From contig NW_019028993.1 in the NCBI RefSeq assembly GCF_002105155.1, positions 620,001 through 684,000 of the forward strand: a stretch of 64,000 nt of DNA, given 5' to 3'. The DNA comes from Lobosporangium transversale. Taxonomy: Eukaryota. The position numbers were made by a program, and so were the translations under genes. Shown in pieces: positions 4,355 through 64,000 of this stretch. Below the pieces are notes generated by a model. It did no database searches, had not been told where the DNA came from, and worked only from the letters and a program-made list of their open reading frames with translations. Each line of letters begins with the position of its first letter. Position 1 is the first letter of the stretch.

Positions 4355-5656
4355 CTAATCCAAATCCATACCCATGATTTTATCCTCCAGTTCTTGGACA
4401 TGGGAATCGTCGTTTGCAGAATCATGGGAGGCATAGCCATCGTCTTCCTTATCGTCATCAATCTCTGTAATGCGTGCCGTGAACTCTGGCGTATCATCAT
4501 CCTCATAATCAAAAGATGAGCTCAAGAATGTTGGTGGAGGTCGACGGTACAAGACCAGCTCGTTACCTTGAACATCACTCAGTTCAGGAGTAGTATTATA
4601 TCGATTCAACCATTGCTTACGAATCAGTGCATCAACCCCATCAGCAAGTGTCACGGTTTTGGGGCCCTCGTATCTAATCAAAGCGCCAAGGTCAGCTTGA
4701 GAGGGTTTGGGTGTTTGAGGTGTTGCATTGTCCCAGTTATCTTGGTCCATCATCATGGATGATTCCGATTGGTCATCCCGATAGGTGTTTGAATTAGAAT
4801 ACTGAGAAAACTGTCCATGGTTATCATCATCACTCGTACGATCTTTCTTGGTGGTGTTGGACTGGAGTTCATTCCGAGGTTCTGAGATGATCTCAAGTGG
4901 GCTGTCATCACCATCCCCACTGTCTCTGCTGCTGCTATTATCCATGGATCGATGGATCCGGCTTCGTTTATATGGCGAAGGTAATGAAGGTGCATGATCC
5001 ATTACTGGTTTTAGCGTCCCATCTTCTAAAACATCAAAGATTTCGCGTAGTGAATCTGCGGACGAAAGAGAGTCTGCAGTACTCTCGCGGCGACGTTTGT
5101 GTTCTTTTTCGCCCAAATGAGATGATGACAACTCTTCTCCTGAAGAAAGGTCAACGATACGCACATCGTTACCTTGAGATCTTCTGGTATATTTTGGCAA
5201 AAGTGGGGGCCTACGAGGAGTAGAGGACAAAGGGTTTGACTCTTTTAATGTAGTTGGGGTCGAGGACAACCGGTCAGAGCTTGTTGTGATATTGTTTGGG
5301 ATATTGTTATTAGTAAGGATAGTGGGATCTGTAGCAGTAGCAGAACGGCGAAGTTTCTTGATAGGATGAGGCCTCGGTAAGGTGGAAGACGGCTCATTCA
5401 ATGAAGCATCGAGAGCGGCATAAAACTCTGGCTCAAAATGGAAAGATCGTTTTCTTCGTCCGGTATCCATGTTGTTGTGCTCAATGTGTGGTGGTGATTG
5501 TTGGCCTGGTTCCTGCTCATATGGCTGGTGAAAAGACTGAGGATAAACTGACTGCTTTTCTCTTTGAAGCAAGTCTTTTTGTGTAATCATGTGGTTATTG
5601 AAGGGGCTATACTTGTGTGATTGAAAGGGGTCTTGGATAGGTCTTTGTGCAAACAT
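4355..5656 (-). CDS. Hypothetical low-complexity protein with basic NLS-like patches and an acidic C-terminus
   Basis: Long uninterrupted ORF; first ATG gives MFAQRPIQDP. No family recognised. Confidence 0.7.
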   Translation of the reverse strand: MFAQRPIQDPFQSHKYSPFNNHMITQKDLLQREKQSVYPQSFHQPYEQEPGQQSPPHIEHNNMDTGRRKRSFHFEPEFYAALDASLNEPSSTLPRPHPIKKLRRSATATDPTILTNNNIPNNITTSSDRLSSTPTTLKESNPLSSTPRRPPLLPKYTRRSQGNDVRIVDLSSGEELSSSHLGEKEHKRRRESTADSLSSADSLREIFDVLEDGTLKPVMDHAPSLPSPYKRSRIHRSMDNSSSRDSGDGDDSPLEIISEPRNELQSNTTKKDRTSDDDNHGQFSQYSNSNTYRDDQSESSMMMDQDNWDNATPQTPKPSQADLGALIRYEGPKTVTLADGVDALIRKQWLNRYNTTPELSDVQGNELVLYRRPPPTFLSSSFDYEDDDTPEFTARITEIDDDKEDDGYASHDSANDDSHVQELEDKIMGMDLD

Positions 5657-47350: not shown

Positions 47351-49220
47351 AGCATGACAATGGAGTCGGACAAAAGGATTTTCGTACTTGCCAAGAATGA
47401 AAAAAAAAAAAAAAAAAAAAAAAATCAGTAGTAAAAAAAAAAAAATGAGTAGTAAAAAAAAAAAAAATCATATATCAAGCTGTATCATCACTCATCTTTC
47501 AGCTCTCACCATTTTTCATCCCATCTCCTACCTCCAGCTTATAGAAAAACAAAACATCAAGTGGCTAGCTCTTTTATTCTTTACCTCCTTCCTGGTTTCT
47601 TTTAGAGGTATGTTGCCAAGTTTCCAGTCTGATCTAAAGATAACTGTCATTCGAAACACTCTTTTTCCTTTCCTTTTTCTTTTTTTTGTCGTCTCTAACA
47701 GCGATAGAATTAGGTCAAATCGCTAGGATATAAAGTTGTTAGCGTTCATAAATAGTCCACTAACGCGCGTTACTCCCGTACCAAATGCACTAGCTTCTTG
47801 AGGTCTAGTCCCACTAAGGTCAAAAATACTGCCATAGCTGTAGTGTATTTTGATCATGATGTGCCTTGCCTCAAATACGACATCTCAGGAGCAACAAGGG
47901 CCGTGAGGAGAACTTCCTCAGTAGTACCTGCAAAGCGCTCGAATATAACAATGACTGGGAGAGATCGACCCCCTCTCTTCATGAATTTGTAAACGTAAAC
48001 AATCATAGCTTTCGTCACTCCCGAGATATCGCAGTTATTCTTCTGCTCCGACTAATTTCGATTTGGTACAGATCAAGAGATAAAATAGTGTATGTATGGT
48101 AGCCATGTACAACTGGTGGACATAAGAAAACTTGCTCTTATCATGCGAAGCGGTTCAAGCTGTTTTCCTGACTACTATTGGGGCTCAGAAGGGGCTCTAG
48201 GCCCTTTTGGGAGAGTCTGAAGAGGAAGTTTGTAGGAGTTTGCTGTGTCCACAACCTCAATTTTTATTATTTTACCACTAACATGGAGTGCGTATATACA
48301 ACAATGCTTTATTATCATAAAAGTCGCACTTTGATTCTAGCCTGAAGTCGAATATGCTTGAGATGCGCCGCGACACACCGAATCTAGCGAAGGCCAAGTT
48401 GGGTAAAGCTTGTTATTCAAGTATAATGTAAGTGCTCCAAGAAACAAAAGCAAAACCCTACGCTCCTCATATCTGTAATAGGTTTTGGTACCCTAGAATA
48501 CTAAAGCTACTGAAACTGCTATATGAGCGGACTATGGGAGGATATGTTGAACGTGATAGTGATGACATACCTGCTGACTTTTTTCTCTGACTCCAAGTTA
48601 GGTCCAGTCGCAAAGGCTGGCATGTTTTTGGCAGGCTAAGTAAGCACATTTTCTGCCTGCCTGCCAGACTAGCGTTCACGAAGGTGCAGTCAGTAAGTAC
48701 ACTCCCCTCCCTCTTATACACTCGCTTTTCAGCAAACATCTCTAATGGTACTTGCAAAGTACTATACTAACGTCTATCCTTTTAAAATGACACTCCAGGA
48801 TCAATATCTGAACCTATCACTATCCCCAGCAAACGCAAAATGCGGGAATTTACGGTAGAGGAACCTTGGCAATCACTGATTGTAGAGGTTAACTCTCGTT
48901 GCCTATAGAGTAACTTAATGTTGCCATCCGTTCCTTCATAAATAATAAGTGAATGGCAAAAAGGACACATTTTTTTCTGGAACAGACGCCGATAATGAGC
49001 TGCACGTCTATGTTATACAGTCATGTATACTATACAATGGCTATAATCTTAGTCTTAGTCATATTATACTTCTAATATGATTACCTCTCAAGTATGAATA
49101 GGATGTACACATTTATTGATGTATTGCATGATGACACGTTGTTTGTATGAGTAATAACAAAAAAAACTATTAGAATAGGTTTTTTTTTCTGAAAGATGGT
49201 ATTCCGTTCCATATGTTGCC

Positions 49221-50480
49221 TTACTCCGTCTTGGGCTTAGCAGCTTCATCAACTTTGATGGCCTGGCCACCAGGGACAGCCATGACAAATGGTGCAGGGC
49301 GAAGAGGAGTATCGGGCATAGGTGGCAACAATGAGGCTGCGCTCTGCCTTGCCAATTGTGCCATAGTGGCGCTATTTATTTTTGAAAAAAAGTAAAATAT
49401 TGATGTGGTTAGATGAAATCGCGTAAACAGACCTACGCGTGAAATAAAAATCAAATGAATATTTTAGACTTACTCCATAATCACCAAAGCTGCCATGGCC
49501 TCAACGATGGGTGTGGCACGTGGAACCACGCAGGGATCATGGCGACCACGTGTTGCCAAGACACCATCCACACCATTGTAACTCGTTGTCTTTTGTTCTT
49601 GGCTGATGGTTGCAGGAGATTTGAAACCGATTCTGAAATAGATATTTTCACCATTCGAGATTCCTCCTTGGATCCCTCCCGAGAAATTAGTCTTGGTTCC
49701 CAAGATCTTTTGGCCCTTACGACTGACCTTTTGGACCCATGCGTCATTATGCAAATGTCCCGGTACCTGTGTGCCTCCAAATCCTGAGCCAATTTCAAAG
49801 GCCTTTGTAGCTGGGATCGATAACATTGCATGAGCAAGCTTGGCCTCCAATTTATCAAAGCATGGCTCTCCAAGTCCTGTGGGCACATTACGGATCACAC
49901 AGGTGACGGTTCCTCCGATCGAGTCATTTGCCTCCTTGGCTTCAATGATGCGCTATAAAGGTAGAAAAAAGAAAAAAGAAAAAAGAAAAACAGAGTGAGA
50001 TGATGAATCATAAGACAGAAAATATAACGAGCTCTTTTTTTTTTTTTTTTTTTTTTTTTCCTCCTTCCGCTTTATTTATATTACCTGAGTCATCTTCTTG
50101 GAAACTTCCTTATCGGGGCATCGAGTAGCTTCCTGATCGATTTGCTCTCGAGTTATTGTGTTCAACATCTCTACAAATTGTTCAGAAGGAACTCCGTTCT
50201 CGTTTTGTTCCTCAATAAAGGGCATGGCGATCTTACCGACTGATGACACGAATGCCACAATCTCAGTACCAAATGCTTCCTTTAAGAACTTTTCCGCAAC
50301 CGCTCCAGCAGCCACGCGACCTTTTTTTTTTTTTTTTTTTTTTTTTAGAATAAAAATAATAAACAAATATATAAATATATAAATAGATAAAAAAAATAAA
50401 AAAAAATAAAAAGTTGGCATTCTTCAGATCATTTTTGTTTTTGTTGGGAAATTTCTCCTTCCTTCGAACCACAAGGAAAT

Positions 50481-50522
<42 letters not shown>

Positions 50523-51109
50523 CCTTTCACTTATTTCTTTCATTACCAATTGTCTCGCGAGCACTAGCACGTCCACCACCGGATGAGGCCTTCAATCCAT
50601 ATTTGAGCAAATAGGTCCAATCAGCGTGAGAAGGACGAGGGTACAGATCCGTCTCAGTGTAATCATGAGGACGCTGATCCTGATTCGGGACTGTCAATCC
50701 AATCGGTGTTCCCAATGTGTGTCCAAATTCTGTACCAGACAAAATCGTTACCCTATCCTTCTCATCACGCTATTTGGGAAAGACACACACATACACAAAA
50801 AAAAAAAAGTTAATAATCATGATAACAATAATGAGGAAAAGATAATCATAGAACGCATTGATATAAGATACAGGATATAAGGTATAGTGTATAAGATATA
50901 AGGCATAAGATATAATGTAATATGAGGATTGATCTTCTTACAGGAGTGGTGAGATTGCTTTGTCCAGGGCGTCGGCGAGTTAGTTGAGGCTGGATATCAT
51001 CCTCAGTCAAGGCAAGTCCAGGTGGACATCCATCGATGATACAACCAACGCCTTTACAGTGTGACTCTCCAAAGGTTGTAACACGGAAGTGGGTTCCAAA
51101 AGTTGACAT
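49221..51109 (-). CDS. ARO2: Chorismate synthase
   Basis: [63 protein letters not shown] and [11 protein letters not shown]. Four GT-AG introns. Confidence 0.97.
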
Positions 51110-51449
51110 TGTTAATTTTTTCCTTTGAAAAGAAAGAATGAAAAGAGATTTCAACAATGAATGAATGAGTCAAAAGAAAAAAGATAAAGAGGGCACTTGT
51201 TCAGAAGAATTAAGTGTAAACAGTCACATTCACATTCCATTTCATCGAGTCATATGCGCCACAGCCCCCTCCAACAATTGACTGGCCTTCAATTACACTT
51301 TCTCAAAAAAGAATTTGCTGCGCAAAAAAAGGGAGACGAGCGCCTGTTGCAATCTGTTCCAATATCTATGGGTTCATATTATTTTACTTTTATATGCTCT
51401 TGTTTTTCTACATCTTTCTTTCTTTCTTTCTTGTTTTGTTTTGATTATT

Positions 51450-53701
51450 CTATACCGAAAAGTTGCCAAGGAGCTCCGGTACCTGAACTTCGCCCTTGTT
51501 GATCTTCTCCAAAGTCTTGATCAGATCAAAATTAATCTTTTCGGACACAACCGAATCCTTCTTATAATCAGGATGGTTCTGTACAAATTGACGGATCCAT
51601 GAGGCTGCTGTCATCAATGTTCCATTCGCACGCTTCTTGATCAATTCAAGATATTTGCTAATCTCACATCGTGTCTCAATATCAATGTTCAATGTGTTCA
51701 AATAATTGTTGACTAATCCCAGCAGTCCAGGGAATCCCTTTGCTGGATTGCCATTGATGATCTCATCAATCGTCATCAGTTCATACTCATTATCCACTCC
51801 TGCGGAAGGTTGTTGTTGGTGATGGTGATGGTGGCTACTGTTGCTGTTGTCTGTATGGGCTGGATCCTGTTCGTTGATAGTTGTCATATGAGGTACTGTC
51901 GCATGGGTTACACGGGGTGATCCAGAAGGGGTTCCTGAAGCTGGTGTGCTAGGTCGCGACTGAGGGAAAATTTGTTTACGGAAATGGAACTTTTCTTGAA
52001 GAACGGCGTTTCTATGATGGGCGACCTTCATGTTCTCATCAACCTAACAACAAGTTAAATTAAAATTAGAATATTGTTTAAAAATGTATCTAACCATAAC
52101 CATACCTTATTGTCCCATTAAACAAAACAAAAAACAAAAAAACAAAAAAAAAAAAAAAAAAAAAAAAAATTACCTTGGAAATAGGAATATAAAAGTTGGT
52201 GTTGAAGCTTAGTACAGCACGGGTGACCAAGACAATGAAGATCGCAAAGGCTGCATTCTCAAAATCTGTCAACTGAATCTCCATTGAGCGGAACTCGACA
52301 CGCCAACCAATAGGACTGGTCTTTGAAGGTGGGGGTTTGAAACGCATGGTTTGCCAATTGGTACTCTGTAAATTCTCGAAATGGTCTGTGCTCTCGTTAT
52401 CGTCCACATTCAACAACTCATGGAAAATCACCAAGGGATCACGGATGAAGAGATGTGAGATATGGCGAGCCAAGAGATCATCAATGCCATTGTCGGAAAG
52501 CTTTTTGTAAATGTCCTCGTCGTAGACCAAGGGTATGTCGTTGTACTCAGGCTTGTAGCTGGGGTCATTAGAGATGTACGAGTCTATCGAATCATAACGT
52601 GATTTGGGGATCCTGTACTTGTTTTCTTTGAGAGGCTATTAATATCAAAAAAGTAACAAATAAATAAATAAATAGACAAATAAACAAAAACAAGTCGAGG
52701 TGATATGAATAAAAAAAGATGTGAGATGGTGCAGAAATGGTGCCATTTGACGTTCCACATGGACAAATAAAAAAGATTTTGGTAAAGGAGTACAGTAAAG
52801 AATGCAATAAAAGTCCATGTGTCACACACAGCATTGATCAAGTAAAGCCCTTTTTTTTTTTTTCCTCTCTTTCTTTTCCGAGATCAGGCGGAGTTTTTTT
52901 TTTTTTTTTTTTTTTTTACCTTGAGTCCACGCTCTTCTTCGGTTCTGTCATCTACGGATTGAGCAATCACATTCCATCTACAATCAACATCACTCAAATA
53001 TCCACGATAAATGGGAGCAGCAGCTGTCAAGGCCAACATGATGGGGCCCAATGGCGCCATTTGATCATAGATCTTGCGTGCCTCATCGACATTGACCGCC
53101 TGAAATGTGATCTGTAGACAACAACATCCCATGCCAAAAGCCATAGCGTCCATGTAAATATGATCTGGTTTGGCAGCTCCTTCTTCAATCGCATTCTTAT
53201 CCTCGGGATAGTCATTAAAAGTTGGGATAGTAGGATCGATAAAAGGTTTTGGAGTATTGACATCGTGGAAAATAGGCATATTGATTGCAACTTTGGATCC
53301 ACGGCGACGGCGAATATTGGCGGTTAAAGTTCTGGGAACATTAAGAAAAAAAATAAAATAAAAACATAAAAAGTTTAAACATTGCGCAGCATCCAATGAG
53401 TTTACTAATTATTAAAGAGAAGCAACTCACAGCGTGTATCCATTTTTTTTTTATAAAAAAAAAAAAAAAAACTTACGGGAATCGAGCGTGAGCATTAATG
53501 ATATCATCTGGGACAAAGAGACTGCGAGCAGCTGGACCATGTGGCTCATGATGGGGCTCAAGGAATTCTCCAGCACATCCAAGACGGGGATAAGATGTCA
53601 GTGTTACAGGGACCTCATTTGGCTTCATGAGCGAACGGGCCAGTTCACGTCTAAAATAAAGCAAATAGTTGTGGCAAGCAACAAGGTAATAAAGATTATG
53701 A

Positions 53702-53736
<35 letters not shown>

Positions 53737-54374
53737 AAAGCCATGATTCTAATCCTGACGGAGACTAAAAAGTTTTTTTTATCGATGCTTAAATACCGAA
53801 GTTTCATATTCCGTTCGACAGCCAACAGATCGCGAGGAAGTCCCATGTAGGGTTCGCCAGGAGTACCCTCCAACATGTAGCGACCGTATTCAGGATGCCA
53901 TGATGAGTCGACTAGCAATCTGAATGCAAGCATATAGTATAAAGCATAAAATTAAAGTAGAAAGGTAAACCCAAAAAGACGTGTGTCAGCAGGGTCATTG
54001 ATGATCATTGATGATCATTGAAGTACATGTAGTATACATGGATATGGATATGGATATGGATATAAAGGAGAGAGAAACGAGATGGCATTGTTGAATTACC
54101 TTTTGGCAGGATCGGTCATGGCTTCTTCCTCCTGTATGGCCAAATGCTGTAGGATCTCCCAGACACGCAAGCTGAGCTTGGCTCGCTGATTCTCCTCATC
54201 GAGACTGACAACGATATACTCGATCTCATCACCCCAGAGAAGACAATCCTTTTGTGAATCCTTGGTAGCCTCCCAGAGGTTCAGGAACTGGATGATACCA
54301 TGGGTTCGGACGTGGTCAGCATACTTCTTGGCCTCGTCCCAAGGCATGGGTGTTCCGAGTGATAAGAGACCCAT
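51450..54374 (-). CDS. GSH1: Glutamate-cysteine ligase catalytic subunit
   Basis: [74 protein letters not shown] and GWRVEFR. Multiple GT-AG introns. Confidence 0.97.
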
Positions 54375-55569
54375 TGTATGATGACTGTGACTATTTTAAA
54401 AAGAATATGAATATGGAAGAGAGAAAGAAAAAGAAAATAAAATAAAAGACAAGAGCCGTAAAAAGGTATAGATACAAGTGAAGGATTGAAAAGGTCGAAT
54501 GAATGAGTGAATGCGGAGGGGAATGAACGATCGAATGAAAGAATGAAAGATAAAAAGAATGAAAAAATGAAAGAAGAGGAAGAGAGTAAAAGACAAAATA
54601 ACTTTGAAATGAGTTTTATTTTTTCTGCCAATAGGAAAAGGGGTGCTGAAGGATGCATTAGTAATTGACCAGAAAATTTTTTCGATCAATTGACCTATTA
54701 GAGTTTTTTGGCACTGTAACAACGTCGAGCCAACGCAAGCTGCACGCGTACAGCAATACAACAATACAACAATACAACAAACAACAATCTTGTTCTCTTG
54801 AAGATGGGCCCTGGGAAACTTGTACATGTACATGTACATGTAAATAAGTAAGAAAAAAAAAAAAAAAAAAAAAGTCTAAATAAATGTTTTATAAACAGTA
54901 ATAGATCCCCTTTGTTAGATGACAACAGTAATCAAGAACAAGATAATGATTTGATTTCAGCCCCTTCTGGGAAACGCAACCGGACAACTTTTTTTTTTTT
55001 TTTTTTTTTTTGATTATAAAGCAAAACCAAAGCCGAGCTGCGCAAAGCAAGGGAAGGTTGCAATTGACGCTAGAGATAGCGTGTGATGGCGTTGACATGT
55101 ATGATGATCAGTCCAATAATATTTTTTTTTTTTTAAGTCTCCTTTGAGAGCCATGGCCTATCAGAGAGTCGGTCTATTATGATCGACGCATGTTCTCATG
55201 TTCTGCATAAAATAATCTATAATGGATTATGATGCCAAATCCAGTCCTTTTTCCATTTAAGGGTATTATGTTTCATGTCTGTGCGTACAAGACATGTGTC
55301 CGTTTTGTGGCTTTTACTCCGACACTTGTCCTGAAATTTGAATTGACATCAAATCCATCGAAATTTTAACAATGTCATCATGGCATGCTAAAGATCTCTT
55401 TCTTTCTTCTTTATTTCACGCCTTCATTCCTCCATACATTCATATACACAATAAAACAATAAAACCTACAATACACAGAGTAGACTTACCCTCTCCCCTG
55501 ACTAAAACTGAGAAAAATAACGGCACATTCGCATTTTCAAAGGTTCATTCCTGCTTGCTCACTTTCAAA

Positions 55570-58500
55570 ATGACAAACAACAACGAAAAGATTTTATCCA
55601 ATTTCACCTGCATGGATTTGGAACAAAGCACCAGTCAGACGAAGCCAACCAATTCAAGTACTCGCACTGGATCCACTCGTGCAACACCGAGGAGAAAAAG
55701 AGTTATTCTGACTGACGAAACGACTCCAGAGCCTTCACCAGTGGCACAGACTGCTAGAGTTAGTGCAAAGTCTTTTAAGCGCCCTAGGCGTTGTGAGGCT
55801 GATTCTTTATCCTCAAATGTCCTTCACTCCGGTCCATTGACAGAAGAAGAGCTGGCCCTGGCGAACGCACGGAAGGAGTCGGCGAGAAGTGTGCTGCAGA
55901 TGATTTTAGATGATCCAGATTCATCGACGACAGTGAATCAATATAAGACACAGCTCCGGCTGTGGGAGGTATGTTGGATCATCAAAATGTCGCTATGAGC
56001 TATCTCAGACAGGCTATCAAACTAGACGACTTGGCTAATTCTCTTTTTTGTTTTTAGCAATACTGCAATGAAAATTATCAAGGTGACTGTAGCGTCGATG
56101 CGAAACGCATGCTTGAATACTTCACAACGGTTGTCTTCAAGCGAACAGTAAAGCGATTGATCGGCACAGATCGTTGCTACCGTGGCGCTATTGGGTATGC
56201 CCAGCAGGGTGGAGGAGATTCTTCGAATTCTCAGGCTGGGGAAGACGCAGTCTATGAGGGAGAAGAGATCGACGAATTAGTCGAGGCAGATATCGACGAA
56301 CATGAACTAAGCGACATGGAGCAGAGACTGGAGACATTAGATAACAGCGAGCAAGTTGATGACGACGACGGCCAAAGCATAGACCAAGGTCAACAACAGG
56401 GACAGGGTCAGAGACAGGGTCAGGAACAGGGTCAGGAACAGGGTCAGGATCAGGATCAGGAACGGAGACAGGGTCAGGGGCAGGGGCAGGGACAGGAACA
56501 AGGACAGGAACAGGAACAGGAACAGGAACAAGGACAGGAACAGGAACAGGATGAAGATCTGGAGCTTCAGCTGAGGTCATTGGCACAGAGAGGTAAGAAG
56601 GCTCCTCCCTCCTGGGATAATATGGAGCCACCTGAAGGAGTCGACCCACATCAATGGCAGATTGATATAGCATTGAATGATGAGGAGCGAGCATCACATG
56701 AAGCTGTAACTGTTGGGGGTTCAAGCAAGAACATCACGCCGAAGCGGAAGACTGCAGCCGTTATCAGGACTGAAAATGAAAGAGAACAAGGTATGTAAAG
56801 ATAACCATGTATTAATATATAAATTGTTATACAGTACTGGGATCCAAACCTTTGGGAAGGCTCCGCCATCACGCGTACCCCAGGTGACAAGACACCATGG
56901 CCGCAACTCAGTGTTAATTATCAATATAAATAGCCTACTAAATTATGACTTAATAAACCATTCCTTAATCCTGCATCCACCTTAATGTATCTTTGATTGT
57001 TACAATTTACACTAATGGTTGATACTTTTTATTATATATACAATTTTTTTTTTTTTTTTTTTTTTTGGATATACTTTTGCGTTTGTAGTTATCCTGCAAG
57101 CACCAGAGGACAAACATGGCAGCAAAATTGTCTTTGTTCCTCTCACGCTGGGGACAGTCGCAAATGTTAAGAAGGCTTTGCAATACTTATGGAGGCAACA
57201 GTCTTCTTCGACAGCTCCGTATCCCAATCCCGCCCCAAACCCAAGAACGGATGTACCACTAGCGGAGGCGATCAAAAATTATGGAGAGAAACTTGTCCAT
57301 CACAAAGTAACGACAGGCACCTTATCTCGCACTGCCACCTGTGCCGTACGAGAACCTTACAACACTAAAATGTACCTGCGTATGTTGGCCTTTACATGGC
57401 GCATGCTTCCGACGGTTGGAGTAAGCGGCAGGCGACCTTACGACAGTGTTACAAGATTTCAGTATATGAGGGAGAGGCTATGCCTCCTTGCACGCCATCA
57501 TATGTTGCTGCGGGATGAGGACATCCGAAACTTGAACCTGGCTAACACATTCAATATTCAGACCCGTCACCCCGCGCCAGGGTCAAAGCTGGCGTCGGGG
57601 CTTGTCTTCTGCATCACACGTGGAAAGACAAACCATAAAGGTGTCGAACTCTATGCGACAGCTTATCGACATAAGCTGTTCTTAAGGTGCACCGTGGGCG
57701 GGTTTGCATTTTATATGCTAGAACGGTTCCAGGTAAATGATGCCGTCAGTCTTGACGCGAGCGTATGATTTTTTCTCATTCAATTACACGAAGTGACATA
57801 TATCCTTATTTTTTTTTTTTTCCCTATTGTAGGTGTTCAAGGAGCCTCTTCCCAATTTTGCGGACCCTGACGAGTGGTACAGCATCAAGGTGCTAACAGG
57901 GGGTGGAACAAGCCAAGAACGGTTAGAGAACCGAAAGGAAGCGCTTGTTGGCCGAACCCAAATGAGCACTACGGCGGCTGTAATGCGTGCCTGCGACGTG
58001 CATTCGGCCAAAATTACGCACTCTGGCCGACATGCAGGGGTCTCGGAAGCCTACGAAAGAGGCTTAAGCCTGGACGATATTCGCCACTTGGGAAGGTGGG
58101 TCATGGGGCAAATGGAGAACTTCTATGCTCCAAAAAACCCAACCAGGGGCGCTTTTTGTATGGCTCAGTTTGGACCGAATGAGCCTTACTTTATCGAGCG
58201 TGATTTGGTCACCCCGCCCTTAGAGCTCCAGCGTCTGGTCTTTCCTTGGATTGAGGAAAATTTTGATAAACATATGCCGGAGAGAGCTGACTCCTGGAGA
58301 GAGGAGTGCACCAAAGAAATGCTGGGGGTCGATCCAAATGTCCCGACAGACGAAGACATTTTTTGGACGCCAATCGAGAAGAAGACGAGCTCGAAACGAT
58401 TGACCCGTGCCTTCAGCACTGACTCCCTTGTTACACGCATTGGGTTCCTCAAACTTCTTGTGCGTATGAGGCGAGTAATCCTTCAGGATGCAGTGCTCTT

Positions 58501-59485
58501 TTTGAAGCCGAACGACAAGGGGAAAATGTTGGAGAACAAACTCCTCGAATCGTTACCAGAAATCTTTGGTTGCCAGCTCTTTCTGGATTTCCAACATCAA
58601 TTGCTTCGGGCCATCGACGTACATCGCCGACAAGCAGGCATCATCCAAGCGGATGTGCCAGTTAATGCGCAAACTATGGTAAGCGCCATTAACACGTTGT
58701 CGGTAGAGGCGCGGGTCTTTCATCAACTCCAGCATGAGACGGTCCAGAAGCTCGAGGCCCTATCCACCCTTGTGACAGAGCAACAGGAGCAACAGAGGCA
58801 GCAACAGGAGCAACAGAGGCAGCAACAGGAGCAAATCCACTTACTTCTCCAATCGCTGCAGCAGCAACAAAGCGCAAATGTGCGGCAGCCTTTTCCATAT
58901 CATGTGCAGTCTTGCCCGCCCTTTGTGTTTAATCCTTCTCCATTGGCGCCAGCACAGAGCCGCCTAGCTTCTTTTCCTTCGGTTCCTCAGGCTCCTACTA
59001 CGCAGGGCCTATATCAAGCTCGCCAGGCCGCTCCACCGCAACAGCAGCCATTATTTTCCAACCAATTGCCACCATGTCCTCAGCAACAGCATCCATATCA
59101 ACATAGCCATGTGCAGGCTCCAATGACCTCAGAGCAGACACAACGATTGCCGGAAGATGAAAGGTATAAAGGCTACCTCATGAAAGGCGATGGCAAGCAA
59201 TTGACGGTCAGGGAAGCATGGGATGAATTCCGTGGGCCCGTTGCTCAGGCAAAGCAGGAAAATCACAAATGGCCATTCACAGAGGCGCGTCACAAGGCAT
59301 TCAGGCGCAGGCGTCAATTTTTCGATCTGATAAAGAATATTGCCGAAAAACAGAAGCGAGACTTCGAAGAGGTAGTAGACGCACTGACAGCTCAGTACAA
59401 GGGTCGGACAATCAATTCCATTCGACTAGAGCTTCTGAAAGACACCGGGAATGACGAAGGCTGCCACCAAGATGCGGACGAGTAG
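55570..59485 (+). CDS. Crypton tyrosine recombinase (Ndc10 domain II-like YR + C-terminal GCR1_C-like DNA-binding domain), ~1142 aa, 4 exons
   Basis: Exons 55570-55968, 56058-56790, 57089-57732 and 57833-59485 splice in frame with GT-AG introns. Catalytic set: R (HMLLRDED), K (RGKTN), HxxR (THSGR), W (LGRW), Y (MENFY). Also FLKLLVRMRRVILQDAV and a C-terminal TVREAWDEF...W...FRRRR. Confidence 0.9.
56385..56550 (+). repeat. Coding microsatellite (CAGGAA/CAGGGT)n encoding a QGQE tract
   Basis: 6-bp units are visible directly; the same tract occurs in copy 2 (61229-61394). Confidence 0.9.
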
Positions 59486-59917
59486 ATGAGTAAGGGTAAT
59501 TTTTTTTTTCTTTTTTTATATATATATACATATATATATATCCTCGGATACAAATTTAAGCAATAAAGCACAAAGTAGTGATGGTGTCGGAAATACCAAG
59601 ACATGAACTGAGCTACAAGAAGCAGAAAACTGTTGGCTGCATCCTTGAGCCAAAAGAGGCTGAGAAAATACAATGTACAAGCAACCCATTGTCGTGAAAT
59701 TTGTGATATTCCAAGGTGTTTAGCATAAGTATCATCCAGGAAAAAGCATTATCGTCAACATTATTAACAAGACAAAACACCATCAAAGCACTATCAAAGC
59801 ATTTTTGACTCGACTCGGCTACCAACGCACTATAACAGAAATAATTGAATACTTCATCAATATAAAAACTGTCATGTTTAATCATTAACACTGTCTCTAC
59901 CATAAAAAGATTTTGTC

Positions 59918-59968
59918 TATTTCGCTTCACAAATCCATTTTGTGGAAAAAGATTTGTGAAGCGAAATA
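59918..59968. repeat. Perfect 18-bp inverted repeat near the Crypton right end
   Basis: TATTTCGCTTCACAAATC (59918-59935), a 15-bp spacer, then GATTTGTGAAGCGAAATA (59951-59968). Confidence 0.9.
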
Positions 59969-60045
59969 TAAAAATTTTGTGACTTGGTATCCTTCTGTGT
60001 CCACCTGTGTCCGCCTGTGTCCATCTGAATGGACACAGGTGAGCA

Positions 60046-60084
60046 ATTTCGTTTCACAATCTATAATGGATTATGATGCCAAAT
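60046..60084. other. Putative tyrosine-recombinase crossover site (attP/circle-junction-like) at the copy1/copy2 junction
   Basis: ATTTCGTTTCACAATC - TATAATG - GATTATGATGCCAAAT: 16-bp inverted arms (12/16 complementary) around a 7-bp spacer, located exactly at the repeat boundary. Confidence 0.7.
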
Positions 60085-63000
60085 CCAGTCCTTTTTCCAT
60101 TTAAGGGTATTATGTTTCATGTCTGTGCGTACAAGACATGTGTCCGTTTTGTGGCTTTTACTCCGACACTTGTCCTGAAATTTGAATTGACATCAAATCC
60201 ATCGAAATTTTAACAATGTCATCATGGCATGCTAAAGATCTCTTTCTTTCTTCTTTATTTCACGCCTTCATTCCTCCATACATTCATATACACAATAAAA
60301 CAATAAAACCTACAATACACAGAGTAGACTTACCCTCTCCCCTGACTAAAACTGAGAAAAATAACGGCACATTCGCATTTTCAAAGGTTCATTCCTGCTT
60401 GCTCACTTTCAAAATGACAAACAACAACGAAAAGATTTTATCCAATTTCACCTGCATGGATTTGGAACAAAGCACCAGTCAGACGAAGCCAACCAATTCA
60501 AGTACTCGCACTGGATCCACTCGTGCAACACCGAGGAGAAAAAGAGTTATTCTGACTGACGAAACGACTCCAGAGCCTTCACCAGTGGCACAGACTGCTA
60601 GAGTTAGTGCAAAGTCTTTTAAGCGCCCTAGGCGTTGTGAGGCTGATTCTTTATCCTCAAATGTCCTTCACTCCGGTCCATTGACAGAAGAAGAGCTGGC
60701 CCTGGCGAACGCACGGAAGGAGTCGGCGAGAAGTGTGCTGCAGATGATTTTAGATGATCCAGATTCATCGACGACAGTGAATCAATATAAGACACAGCTC
60801 CGGCTGTGGGAGGTATGTTGGATCATCAAAATGTCGCTATGAGCTATCTCAGACAGGCTATCAAACTAGACGACTTGGCTAATTCTCTTTTTTGTTTTTA
60901 GCAATACTGCAATGAAAATTATCAAGGTGACTGTAGCGTCGATGCGAAACGCATGCTTGAATACTTCACAACGGTTGTCTTCAAGCGAACAGTAAAGCGA
61001 TTGATCGGCACAGATCGTTGCTACCGTGGCGCTATTGGGTATGCCCAGCAGGGTGGAGGAGATTCTTCGAATTCTCAGGCTGGGGAAGACGCAGTCTATG
61101 AGGGAGAAGAGATCGACGAATTAGTCGAGGCAGATATCGACGAACATGAACTAAGCGACATGGAGCAGAGACTGGAGACATTAGATAACAGCGAGCAAGT
61201 TGATGACGACGACGGCCAAAGCATAGACCAAGGTCAACAACAGGGACAGGGTCAGAGACAGGGTCAGGAACAGGGTCAGGAACAGGGTCAGGATCAGGAT
61301 CAGGAACGGAGACAGGGTCAGGGGCAGGGGCAGGGACAGGAACAAGGACAGGAACAGGAACAGGAACAGGAACAAGGACAGGAACAGGAACAGGATGAAG
61401 ATCTGGAGCTTCAGCTGAGGTCATTGGCACAGAGAGGTAAGAAGGCTCCTCCCTCCTGGGATAATATGGAGCCACCTGAAGGAGTCGACCCACATCAATG
61501 GCAGATTGATATAGCATTGAATGATGAGGAGCGAGCATCACATGAAGCTGTAACTGTTGGGGGTTCAAGCAAGAACATCACGCCGAAGCGGAAGACTGCA
61601 GCCGTTATCAGGACTGAAAATGAAAGAGAACAAGGTATGTAAAGATAACCATGTATTAATATATAAATTGTTATACAGTACTGGGATCCAAACCTTTGGG
61701 AAGGCTCCGCCATCACGCGTACCCCAGGTGACAAGACACCATGGCCGCAACTCAGTGTTAATTATCAATATAAATAGCCTACTAAATTATGACTTAATAA
61801 ACCATTCCTTAATCCTGCATCCACCTTAATGTATCTTTGATTGTTACAATTTACACTAATGGTTGATACTTTTTATTATATATACAATTTTTTTTTTTTT
61901 TTTTTTTTTTTGGATATACTTTTGCGTTTGTAGTTATCCTGCAAGCACCAGAGGACAAACATGGCAGCAAAATTGTCTTTGTTCCTCTCACGCTGGGGAC
62001 AGTCGCAAATGTTAAGAAGGCTTTGCAATACTTATGGAGGCAACAGTCTTCTTCGACAGCTCCGTATCCCAATCCCGCCCCAAACCCAAGAACGGATGTA
62101 CCACTAGCGGAGGCGATCAAAAATTATGGAGAGAAACTTGTCCATCACAAAGTAACGACAGGCACCTTATCTCGCACTGCCACCTGTGCCGTACGAGAAC
62201 CTTACAACACTAAAATGTACCTGCGTATGTTGGCCTTTACATGGCGCATGCTTCCGACGGTTGGAGTAAGCGGCAGGCGACCTTACGACAGTGTTACAAG
62301 ATTTCAGTATATGAGGGAGAGGCTATGCCTCCTTGCACGCCATCATATGTTGCTGCGGGATGAGGACATCCGAAACTTGAACCTGGCTAACACATTCAAT
62401 ATTCAGACCCGTCACCCCGCGCCAGGGTCAAAGCTGGCGTCGGGGCTTGTCTTCTGCATCACACGTGGAAAGACAAACCATAAAGGTGTCGAACTCTATG
62501 CGACAGCTTATCGACATAAGCTGTTCTTAAGGTGCACCGTGGGCGGGTTTGCATTTTATATGCTAGAACGGTTCCAGGTAAATGATGCCGTCAGTCTTGA
62601 CGCGAGCGTATGATTTTTTCTCATTCAATTACACGAAGTGACATATATCCTTATTTTTTTTTTTTTCCCTATTGTAGGTGTTCAAGGAGCCTCTTCCCAA
62701 TTTTGCGGACCCTGACGAGTGGTACAGCATCAAGGTGCTAACAGGGGGTGGAACAAGCCAAGAACGGTTAGAGAACCGAAAGGAAGCGCTTGTTGGCCGA
62801 ACCCAAATGAGCACTACGGCGGCTGTAATGCGTGCCTGCGACGTGCATTCGGCCAAAATTACGCACTCTGGCCGACATGCAGGGGTCTCGGAAGCCTACG
62901 AAAGAGGCTTAAGCCTGGACGATATTCGCCACTTGGGAAGGTGGGTCATGGGGCAAATGGAGAACTTCTATGCTCCAAAAAACCCAACCAGGGGCGCTTT

Positions 63001-64000
63001 TTGTATGGCTCAGTTTGGACCGAATGAGCCTTACTTTATCGAGCGTGATTTGGTCACCCCGCCCTTAGAGCTCCAGCGTCTGGTCTTTCCTTGGATTGAG
63101 GAAAATTTTGATAAACATATGCCGGAGAGAGCTGACTCCTGGAGAGAGGAGTGCACCAAAGAAATGCTGGGGGTCGATCCAAATGTCCCGACAGACGAAG
63201 ACATTTTTTGGACGCCAATCGAGAAGAAGACGAGCTCGAAACGATTGACCCGTGCCTTCAGCACTGACTCCCTTGTTACACGCATTGGGTTCCTCAAACT
63301 TCTTGTGCGTATGAGGCGAGTAATCCTTCAGGATGCAGTGCTCTTTTTGAAGCCGAACGACAAGGGGAAAATGTTGGAGAACAAACTCCTCGAATCGTTA
63401 CCAGAAATCTTTGGTTGCCAGCTCTTTCTGGATTTCCAACATCAATTGCTTCGGGCCATCGACGTACATCGCCGACAAGCAGGCATCATCCAAGCGGATG
63501 TGCCAGTTAATGCGCAAACTATGGTAAGCGCCATTAACACGTTGTCGGTAGAGGCGCGGGTCTTTCATCAACTCCAGCATGAGACGGTCCAGAAGCTCGA
63601 GGCCCTATCCACCCTTGTGACAGAGCAACAGGAGCAACAGAGGCAGCAACAGGAGCAACAGAGGCAGCAACAGGAGCAAATCCACTTACTTCTCCAATCG
63701 CTGCAGCAGCAACAAAGCGCAAATGTGCGGCAGCCTTTTCCATATCATGTGCAGTCTTGCCCGCCCTTTGTGTTTAATCCTTCTCCATTGGCGCCAGCAC
63801 AGAGCCGCCTAGCTTCTTTTCCTTCGGTTCCTCAGGCTCCTACTACGCAGGGCCTATATCAAGCTCGCCAGGCCGCTCCACCGCAACAGCAGCCATTATT
63901 TTCCAACCAATTGCCACCATGTCCTCAGCAACAGCATCCATATCAACATAGCCATGTGCAGGCTCCAATGACCTCAGAGCAGACACAACGATTGCCGGAA
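60058..64000 (+). mobile_element. Crypton copy 2, truncated by the window end
   Basis: Appears identical to copy 1 except for one extra T in the intron-2 poly(T) (offset changes from 4844 to 4845). Confidence 0.9.
60414..64000 (+). CDS. Crypton tyrosine recombinase, copy 2 (3' end outside the window)
   Basis: Same exons as copy 1 (ATG 60414; exon 4 from 62678). Catalytic motifs are intact. Confidence 0.85.

Follow-up and report, generated by a model that had tools for sequence, protein, structure and literature searches.

The window, a 64,000-nucleotide stretch of Lobosporangium transversale DNA, holds two head-to-tail copies of a CryptonF element, and the point where they meet is surrounded by short direct and inverted repeats whose role is the question that this locus raises. 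We consider these repeats to be probable accessory sites at which the recombinase of the element itself binds, and which would help it to pair its two ends correctly; that they bind protein is suggested by a period and an order that are kept among relatives where the surrounding sequence is not. The features of the locus are collected in Table 1.

Table 1. Features of the CryptonF tandem and of its end motifs (window coordinates).
Feature	Position	Strand	Remarks
Host/left-end junction, copy 1	55214..55240	+	Host gives AATC (inner 4 bases of right arm), then same spacer
CryptonF copy 1	55218..60061	+	~4.84 kb, left-end 7-bp spacer included
Left-end GGACA-class motifs, copy 1	55291..55331	+	Same motifs as copy 2
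Recombinase gene	55570..59485	+	Inferred exons 55570-55968, 56058-56790, 57089-57732, 57833-59485; open frame of 1,142 aa
GCR1_C-like C-terminal domain	59204..59386	+	Residues 458-518 of exon-4 frame; Pfam PF12550
Extra arm-like site 1	59919..59935	+	One base longer than terminal arm; 15/16; 0/500 shuffles
Extra arm-like site 2	59951..59967	-	Inverted; with site 1 makes the perfect 18-bp repeat 59918-59968
Three CTGTGTCC, GGACA-class array	59995..60022	+	Exact 10-bp period
Core-proximal GGACAC motif	60031..60038	+	Starts 31 bp ahead of spacer
Junction core site	60046..60084	+	Right-end arm 60046-60061, spacer TATAATG 60062-60068, inverted left-end arm 60069-60084
CryptonF copy 2, head-to-tail with copy 1	60062..64000	+	Continues past window edge
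Left-end GGACA-class motifs, copy 2	60135..60175	+	60135-60145, 60165-60175

The element is a CryptonF of ordinary type. It shares with the CryptonF elements described in the accessible portions of PMC3212892 and PMC9977147 a single gene for a tyrosine recombinase with a C-terminal GCR1_C domain (here a putative one), a length in the 3–5 kb range and a fungal host, as well as a short AT-rich core at its ends, multiple copies, and a deleted derivative (PMC3212892; CryptonF-1_cRei in PMC9977147). The 4.84-kb element is intact and looks recently mobile, and the two copies differ over 3,942 bp solely by one T in a poly-T run. Summed contig depth at the element ends is ~20–23x that of the single-copy flank, and 10–20x in the interior, in three DNA runs from three studies; this depth is a rough guide and gives no copy number, one of the three runs is possibly the source of the window, and the runs are not independent because most variants are common to all three. 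A depth of ~20x the flank, with neither a reverse transcriptase nor a DDE family in the four frames scanned with Pfam, is that of a multi-copy DNA transposon. An internally deleted derivative (58082>59611), likely a non-autonomous form, retains both ends and all of the motifs and is present at ~5–7x flank depth in the three runs. The majority contigs of these runs differ from copy 1 at 55283, 55653, 55684, 57327, 58271 and 59685, and copies 1 and 2 agree at the contig-variant sites wherever both are visible; because the two copies are alike but unlike the majority contigs, the tandem would be either a local duplication of one copy or an assembly duplication.

The 7-bp spacer is the same at the host junction of copy 1 and at the tandem junction, and the outer right end falls outside the window. 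A high-depth contig begins exactly at 55219 in two runs, which suggests that the left ends of the copies share the last six bases of the spacer and diverge before them. To the left are two host genes, both on the minus strand, which we take to be a chorismate synthase-like gene (~49470-51157) and a glutamate-cysteine ligase-like gene (~51450-53933).

The splice sites of the recombinase gene are predicted, and alternative choices also yield open frames. The NDC10_II recombinase domain scores 41.7 bits with Pfam, compared to a cut-off of 26.3, and within the exon-4 frame Arg66, His67, Arg88, Trp89 and Tyr98 are invariant across 21 sequences, with His63 nearly so. The His-x-Gly-Arg and Gly-Arg-Trp motifs and Tyr98 are conserved in the alignment of recombinase homologues, and presumably include the catalytic residues. 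A long Gln/Pro-rich linker precedes the GCR1_C-like domain, whose match to PF12550 is weak (E 4.3e-4; 21 bits, under the Pfam cut-off of 23); the region is conserved in the relatives, and a distant homologue, P0031, bears PF12550. A model of the C-terminal domain has four helices (mean pLDDT 76.8); Foldseek matched it to nothing at an E of 0.001 or better, and among 48,161 chains there was no clear solved-structure match (best Z 5.1). The named proteins among the 31 matches of a homologue search are nearly all from the Mortierellaceae, the best at 69%. Open reading frames and Pfam revealed no second gene in the element and no DNA-bending or directionality protein.

At the tandem junction two arms of 16 bp each flank the 7-bp spacer and are complementary at 12 of 16 positions, and we infer that this core is the crossover site. 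A tyrosine-recombinase site is given in the accessible portion of PMC3212892 as 11–13-bp inverted repeats around 6–8 bp, and the junction here is alike in layout, with arms that are somewhat longer. Matches to the arm with three or fewer mismatches number five in the 64 kb, all of them at element ends; five were reached in 6 of 100 shuffles.

A preliminary description of this DNA, made from its letters alone, had pointed to two classes of motif around the junction, and the letters and coordinates that it gave for them are all correct; what it called the left arm of the junction is in fact the right (3′) end of the element. Proceeding inwards from the core, the order is the arm, a GGACA motif near −30, a phased GGACA array, and copies of the arm. 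The arm copies form the perfect 18-bp inverted repeat that had been described (59918-59935 and 59951-59968, with a 15-bp spacer), and when the window's 25 longest perfect inverted repeats are listed (spacers of up to 60 bp), all the others are poly-A or poly-T runs. The resemblance of the palindrome to the junction arm is borne out at 15 of 16 positions when one extra base is allowed. The array consists, as reported, of CTGTGTCC at 59995, 60005 and 60015, an exact 10-bp period, with an inverted occurrence at 60031-60038; one further copy of CTGTGTCC lies in the window, in host DNA at 48243, and TGTGTCC-N3-4-TGTGTCC, which none of 100 shuffles contains, is present at two places in the window. 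The DNA between the two classes has A/T tracts. The related motifs on the other side of the junction are present as claimed (GACATGTGTCC at 55291 and 60135, GACACTTGTCC at 55321 and 60165), although taken alone they make a weak case; the strict GGACA(C/T) motif occurs once in the first 300 bp of the element and four times in its interior.

The preliminary description had also held that absence of these motifs from close relatives would speak against it, and we have therefore compared related elements recovered from metagenomes, where a scan gave 99 pattern matches that reduce to 13 loci. Counts at the 3′ ends cover the five loci with over 400 bp beyond the stop codon (L002, L004, L005, L006 and L007; the other eight are shorter), and counts at the 5′ ends cover the four in which 2.4 kb or more lies upstream of the match (L003, L006, L007 and L008, leaving out nine of the 13). 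L002, L004, L006 and L007 represent separate families, with protein identities of 47–55% to each other and 51–56% to the window; L003 groups with L002, and L005 with L006. The non-coding ends of the relatives are unalignable to the window by blastn, save for a reversed match of L004 to the CTGTGTCC array. Their ends were set by visual inspection, guided by likeness to the arm and by the nearest GGACA, with neither a second copy nor an empty site as confirmation. Protein-based scans of viral contigs and of prokaryote genomes gave 33 and 16 pattern matches, respectively, and no relatives, and the left-end DNA pattern had no match in either collection.

The motifs are not absent from the relatives: both classes reappear, in an unchanged order, just within the ends of independent elements. 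For the first class, the GGACA(C/T) motif was derived from the window and the relatives' regions were bounded by the stop codon alone; past the stop codons of the five relatives there are 18 occurrences in 3,014 bp compared to 3.2 expected (Poisson P 8e-9, a value inflated because tandem copies are not independent). The motifs are clustered, mostly 10–11 bp apart, in four of the five relatives that reach the 3′ end, and L005, which has an in-frame stop, lacks an array (one match in 1,076 bp). In a ranking of all 512 five-mers GACAC is second, ACACA third and GGACA fifth, the other two of the top five being A-runs. The same-strand spacings at the 3′ ends are 10 and 10 bp in the window, 21 and then five of 11 in L002, 10, 10 and 22 in L004, 19 and 11 in L006, and 19 and 14 in L007; those at the 5′ ends are 10 in L003 and 11 in L007. 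A same-strand spacing of 10–11 bp is thus found in six of ten end regions, with differing filler bases, compared to one among the 13 close pairs present in 55 kb of host sequence. From the start of the core-proximal motif to the spacer is a distance of 29 bp in L002, L004 and L006 and of 31 bp in the window, and this motif has the same orientation in all four, although the 29-bp offset is partly circular because the relatives' ends were placed using the nearest GGACA. The array of the window faces the opposite way to those of L002, L004 and L006. At the 5′ ends the motif is present in three of four loci (seven occurrences compared to 1.1 expected, in regions whose lengths we chose), with none at the 5′ end of L008; GACACTTGTCC of the window's left end, and CGTACAAGACA upstream of it, recur at the 5′ end of L003.

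For the second class, the position of the one-base gap was taken from the window palindrome and applied to each element's own terminal arm, and this within-element test was performed after a cross-element weight matrix. In the window, L002, L004 and L006 the best match in the whole element to the arm with one added base sits 89–165 bp in from the end, with scores of 15/16 twice in the window, 12/16 in L002 (and a second of 11 at 20 bp), 13/16 in L004, and, for three sites spaced 21 bp apart in L006, 13/16, 12/16 and 13/16. At these sites an insertion of one base outscores −1, 0 and +2 in all four elements, and shuffles of the last 184 bp reached the score in 0, 11, 0 and 1 of 500 for the window, L002, L004 and L006, respectively. 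L006 also holds a copy of the window's 59919..59935 site that is identical at 15 of 17 positions. With an arm weight matrix built by leaving out one element at a time, the subterminal site with the added base ranks first in L004 and L006 and third to fourth in the window, and neither arm nor copies were recovered in L002 or L007. No end was recognised in L005, and L007 has no recognisable arm or arm copy (its best match was reached in 358 of 500 shuffles).

The geometry of the arm copies varies among elements, being direct repeats in L002 and L006 and a back-to-back pair in L004 (14/18, with a 7-bp gap), and the conserved unit is therefore the copy that is one base longer, not the palindrome. 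The palindrome as such, which the preliminary description had named, does not recur: all 13 loci lack a perfect inverted repeat of at least 9 bp past the stop codon, and we have rejected it as the functional unit since its geometry is absent from the relatives. Elsewhere, L001, the closest relative, has a perfect inverted repeat of 14 bp around a 33-bp spacer, at 1125-1185 in a predicted intron before the last exon.

The reading that we regard as likely is that each class of site is read by a different part of one protein. The tyrosine-recombinase core would bind the junction, that is, the arm, the 7-bp spacer and the inverted arm; the C-terminal GCR1_C-like domain would bind the GGACA(C/T) motifs, which begin 29–31 bp away from the spacer and recur at intervals of roughly one helical turn, and on its Gln/Pro-rich linker could bridge the core and the flanking DNA as does the arm-binding domain of lambda Int. 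The arm copies, which are one base longer and have no partner across a 7-bp spacer, could take up additional recombinase subunits yet escape cleavage, as DR1 and DR2 of the TnpI system do. Several observations stand against assigning the repeats to accessory sites: array and arm copies both vary in orientation, unlike the fixed geometry of lambda att; L005 lacks an array, L007 an arm copy, and the 5′ end of L008 the motif; the GCR1_C match is under the Pfam cut-off; and no DNA-bending or directionality protein was recognised in the element.

We lean, with somewhat better than even confidence, towards the C-terminal domain as the reader of GGACA, because Hot1 and Gcr1 of yeast descend from the GCR1_C domain of CryptonF (as given in the accessible portion of PMC3212892) and the C-terminus of Hot1 reportedly binds sequences related to GGGACAAA. 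The latter is stated in the title of a 2015 paper cited in PMC12963334, and a GGGACAAA-related Hot1 motif also appears in the motif table of PMC11267847, both sources being accessible in part. However, Bai et al. 2015 (PMC4462951) mapped Hot1 binding to CATTTGGC, according to the portion available, and CATTTGGC is similar to the outer arm bases ATTTGG. The published Hot1 motifs disagree, and the yeast data therefore leave the domain assignment at somewhat better than an even chance of being right.

There are two other readings of the sites. One is that the element's protein binds them for transcription control, with the GCR1_C-like domain acting on its own promoter in a circle or tandem. The domesticated GCR1_C proteins Gcr1, Hot1 and Msn1 are transcription regulators, and the right-end array lies ~350–500 bp upstream of the predicted start codon of copy 2 at the junction; but the densest arrays are at the 3′ end, which in an integrated single copy is far from the promoter, the nearest motif is at a near-fixed distance from the core, and the second class consists of copies of the recombination arm, so that we regard control of transcription as an unlikely function. 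The other keeps the repeats as recombination sites but assigns them differently, with a host architectural protein on GGACA, or with the GCR1_C domain reading the outer ATTTGG of the arms and of their copies. The CATTTGGC site of Hot1 is near the outer arm (PMC4462951, seen in part), host accessory proteins are used by lambda (described in the accessible portion of PMC4880445) and by Xer systems, and A/T tracts separate the motif classes; yet GGACA persists in five element families that come from different samples, and it agrees with the other Hot1 motif, GGGACAAA, known from partly accessible sources, and an assignment of this kind seems to us improbable.

Two further explanations fare much worse. 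An origin of the repeats as neutral products of slippage and template switching where transposons end would suit the L002 array, a plain 11-bp tandem repeat, and the perfect palindrome, which is confined to the window and might have come from a recent local inversion, but it appears to be largely refuted already by conservation, as the core motif, period, order and one-base extension recur where the ends are otherwise unalignable, and we give it very little credence. The 20–21 bp periods resemble those of plasmid iterons, and the phased repeats might be taken for a replication origin of an excised circle, or the palindrome, an 18-bp perfect inverted repeat that can fold, for a hairpin or cruciform used as a single-strand site in the manner of integron attC. 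Active Cryptons do gain copy number (PMC9977147, in the portion accessible); nevertheless the direct or back-to-back copies of the relatives could not form the same hairpin and Pfam finds no replication protein family in the four frames scanned, which makes either role highly improbable. The single-strand hairpin site was rejected for the relatives' lack of the palindrome geometry.

If the repeats are accessory sites, as we favour, they follow a principle that is already known from bacterial tyrosine recombinases. As in the lambda Int att sites (PMC4880445, accessible in part), a second motif class that is distinct from the core flanks the crossover on both sides, and the recombinase has two DNA-binding modules, the second of them here a candidate. 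The arm sites of lambda work through a separate N-terminal domain together with IHF, Xis and Fis (same portion of PMC4880445); here the candidate domain is C-terminal and unrelated by the tests run, the orientation of the array is variable, and no counterpart of Xis, IHF or Fis was identified. The extra arm copies resemble DR1 and DR2 of the TnpI/IRS system of Tn4430 more than they do the arm sites of lambda. According to the accessible part of PMC2847244, DR1 and DR2 impose resolution selectivity, and the likeness consists of extra copies of the recombinase motif on one side of an inverted core, found in the window, L002, L004 and L006 and not in L007, and forming direct repeats in L002 and L006. 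TnpI differs in resolving cointegrates of the Tn3 family, whereas the copies here are one base longer, variable in orientation and accompanied by a second motif class. Finally, the yeast Hot1 and Gcr1 sites (related to GGGACAAA; CTTCC/CWTCC; CATTTGGC) have GGACA in common with one Hot1 motif, as partly accessible sources give it, but are promoter elements of host transcription factors, unlike the arrays at Crypton ends.

CryptonF elements are described in the accessible portions of PMC3212892 and PMC9977147 as having only direct repeats of 4–6 bp, and no terminal inverted or long repeats; the joined ends here depart from these descriptions in having a 16-7-16 inverted core and two ordered classes of subterminal site. 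The literature on Cryptons that was searched, in part-accessible sources, for tyrosine recombinase, subterminal, arm-type/core-type and inverted repeats yielded no such layout, although Goodwin 2003, Gomar-Alba 2015 and Repbase may hold subterminal repeats. In the literature searched, an array of two conserved site classes, one of them with a systematic extension by one base, appears to be undescribed for the ends of Cryptons.

With the site map, a first round of biochemistry on Crypton ends has definite probes and mutants to work with, and the motif classes offer a route to finding such ends. The recognition of Crypton ends and the choice between excision and integration reportedly rested on a model from 2003, and the termini of Cryptons have been described as almost without features. 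The map also ties the DNA specificity of the Crypton-derived yeast regulators Hot1 and Gcr1 to a possible transposon origin, and a eukaryotic integrase with mapped accessory sites could be of interest for genome engineering. We further speculate, with considerable doubt, that the CryptonF recombinase might act without a host bending protein as the eukaryotic counterpart of the regulated phage integrases, a single protein that would read the core, the phased GGACA arm sites and the uncleavable longer arm copies to set direction; the GGGACA specificity of Hot1 would then be a relic of end-binding.

Some smaller features of the ends can be added. The right-end spacers of the relatives have only their first T in common. 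The putative left end of L006 (72-98, with 4722-4744 at the right) has the layout of the window's host junction, with four arm-like host bases, a 7-bp spacer and an inverted arm; its spacer is unlike that of the right end, so that the two may not be true direct repeats, and a chimeric metagenome contig is also possible. In the right end of the element, run X7 carries only C>T and G>A changes, a pattern like that of a bisulfite library; four of the five CpGs in 59678-59913 are listed as converted in its consensus, as is the CpG at 60012, and the right end therefore looks unmethylated there (window 59678-60030). Lastly, the L005/L006 family has a divergent C-terminal domain (the C-terminal 120 residues), GCGACA-type variants of the motif (in L006 at 165-215 and 4675-4725) and an 11-bp repeat at the 5′ end, and it is possible that domain and motif are changing together in this family.
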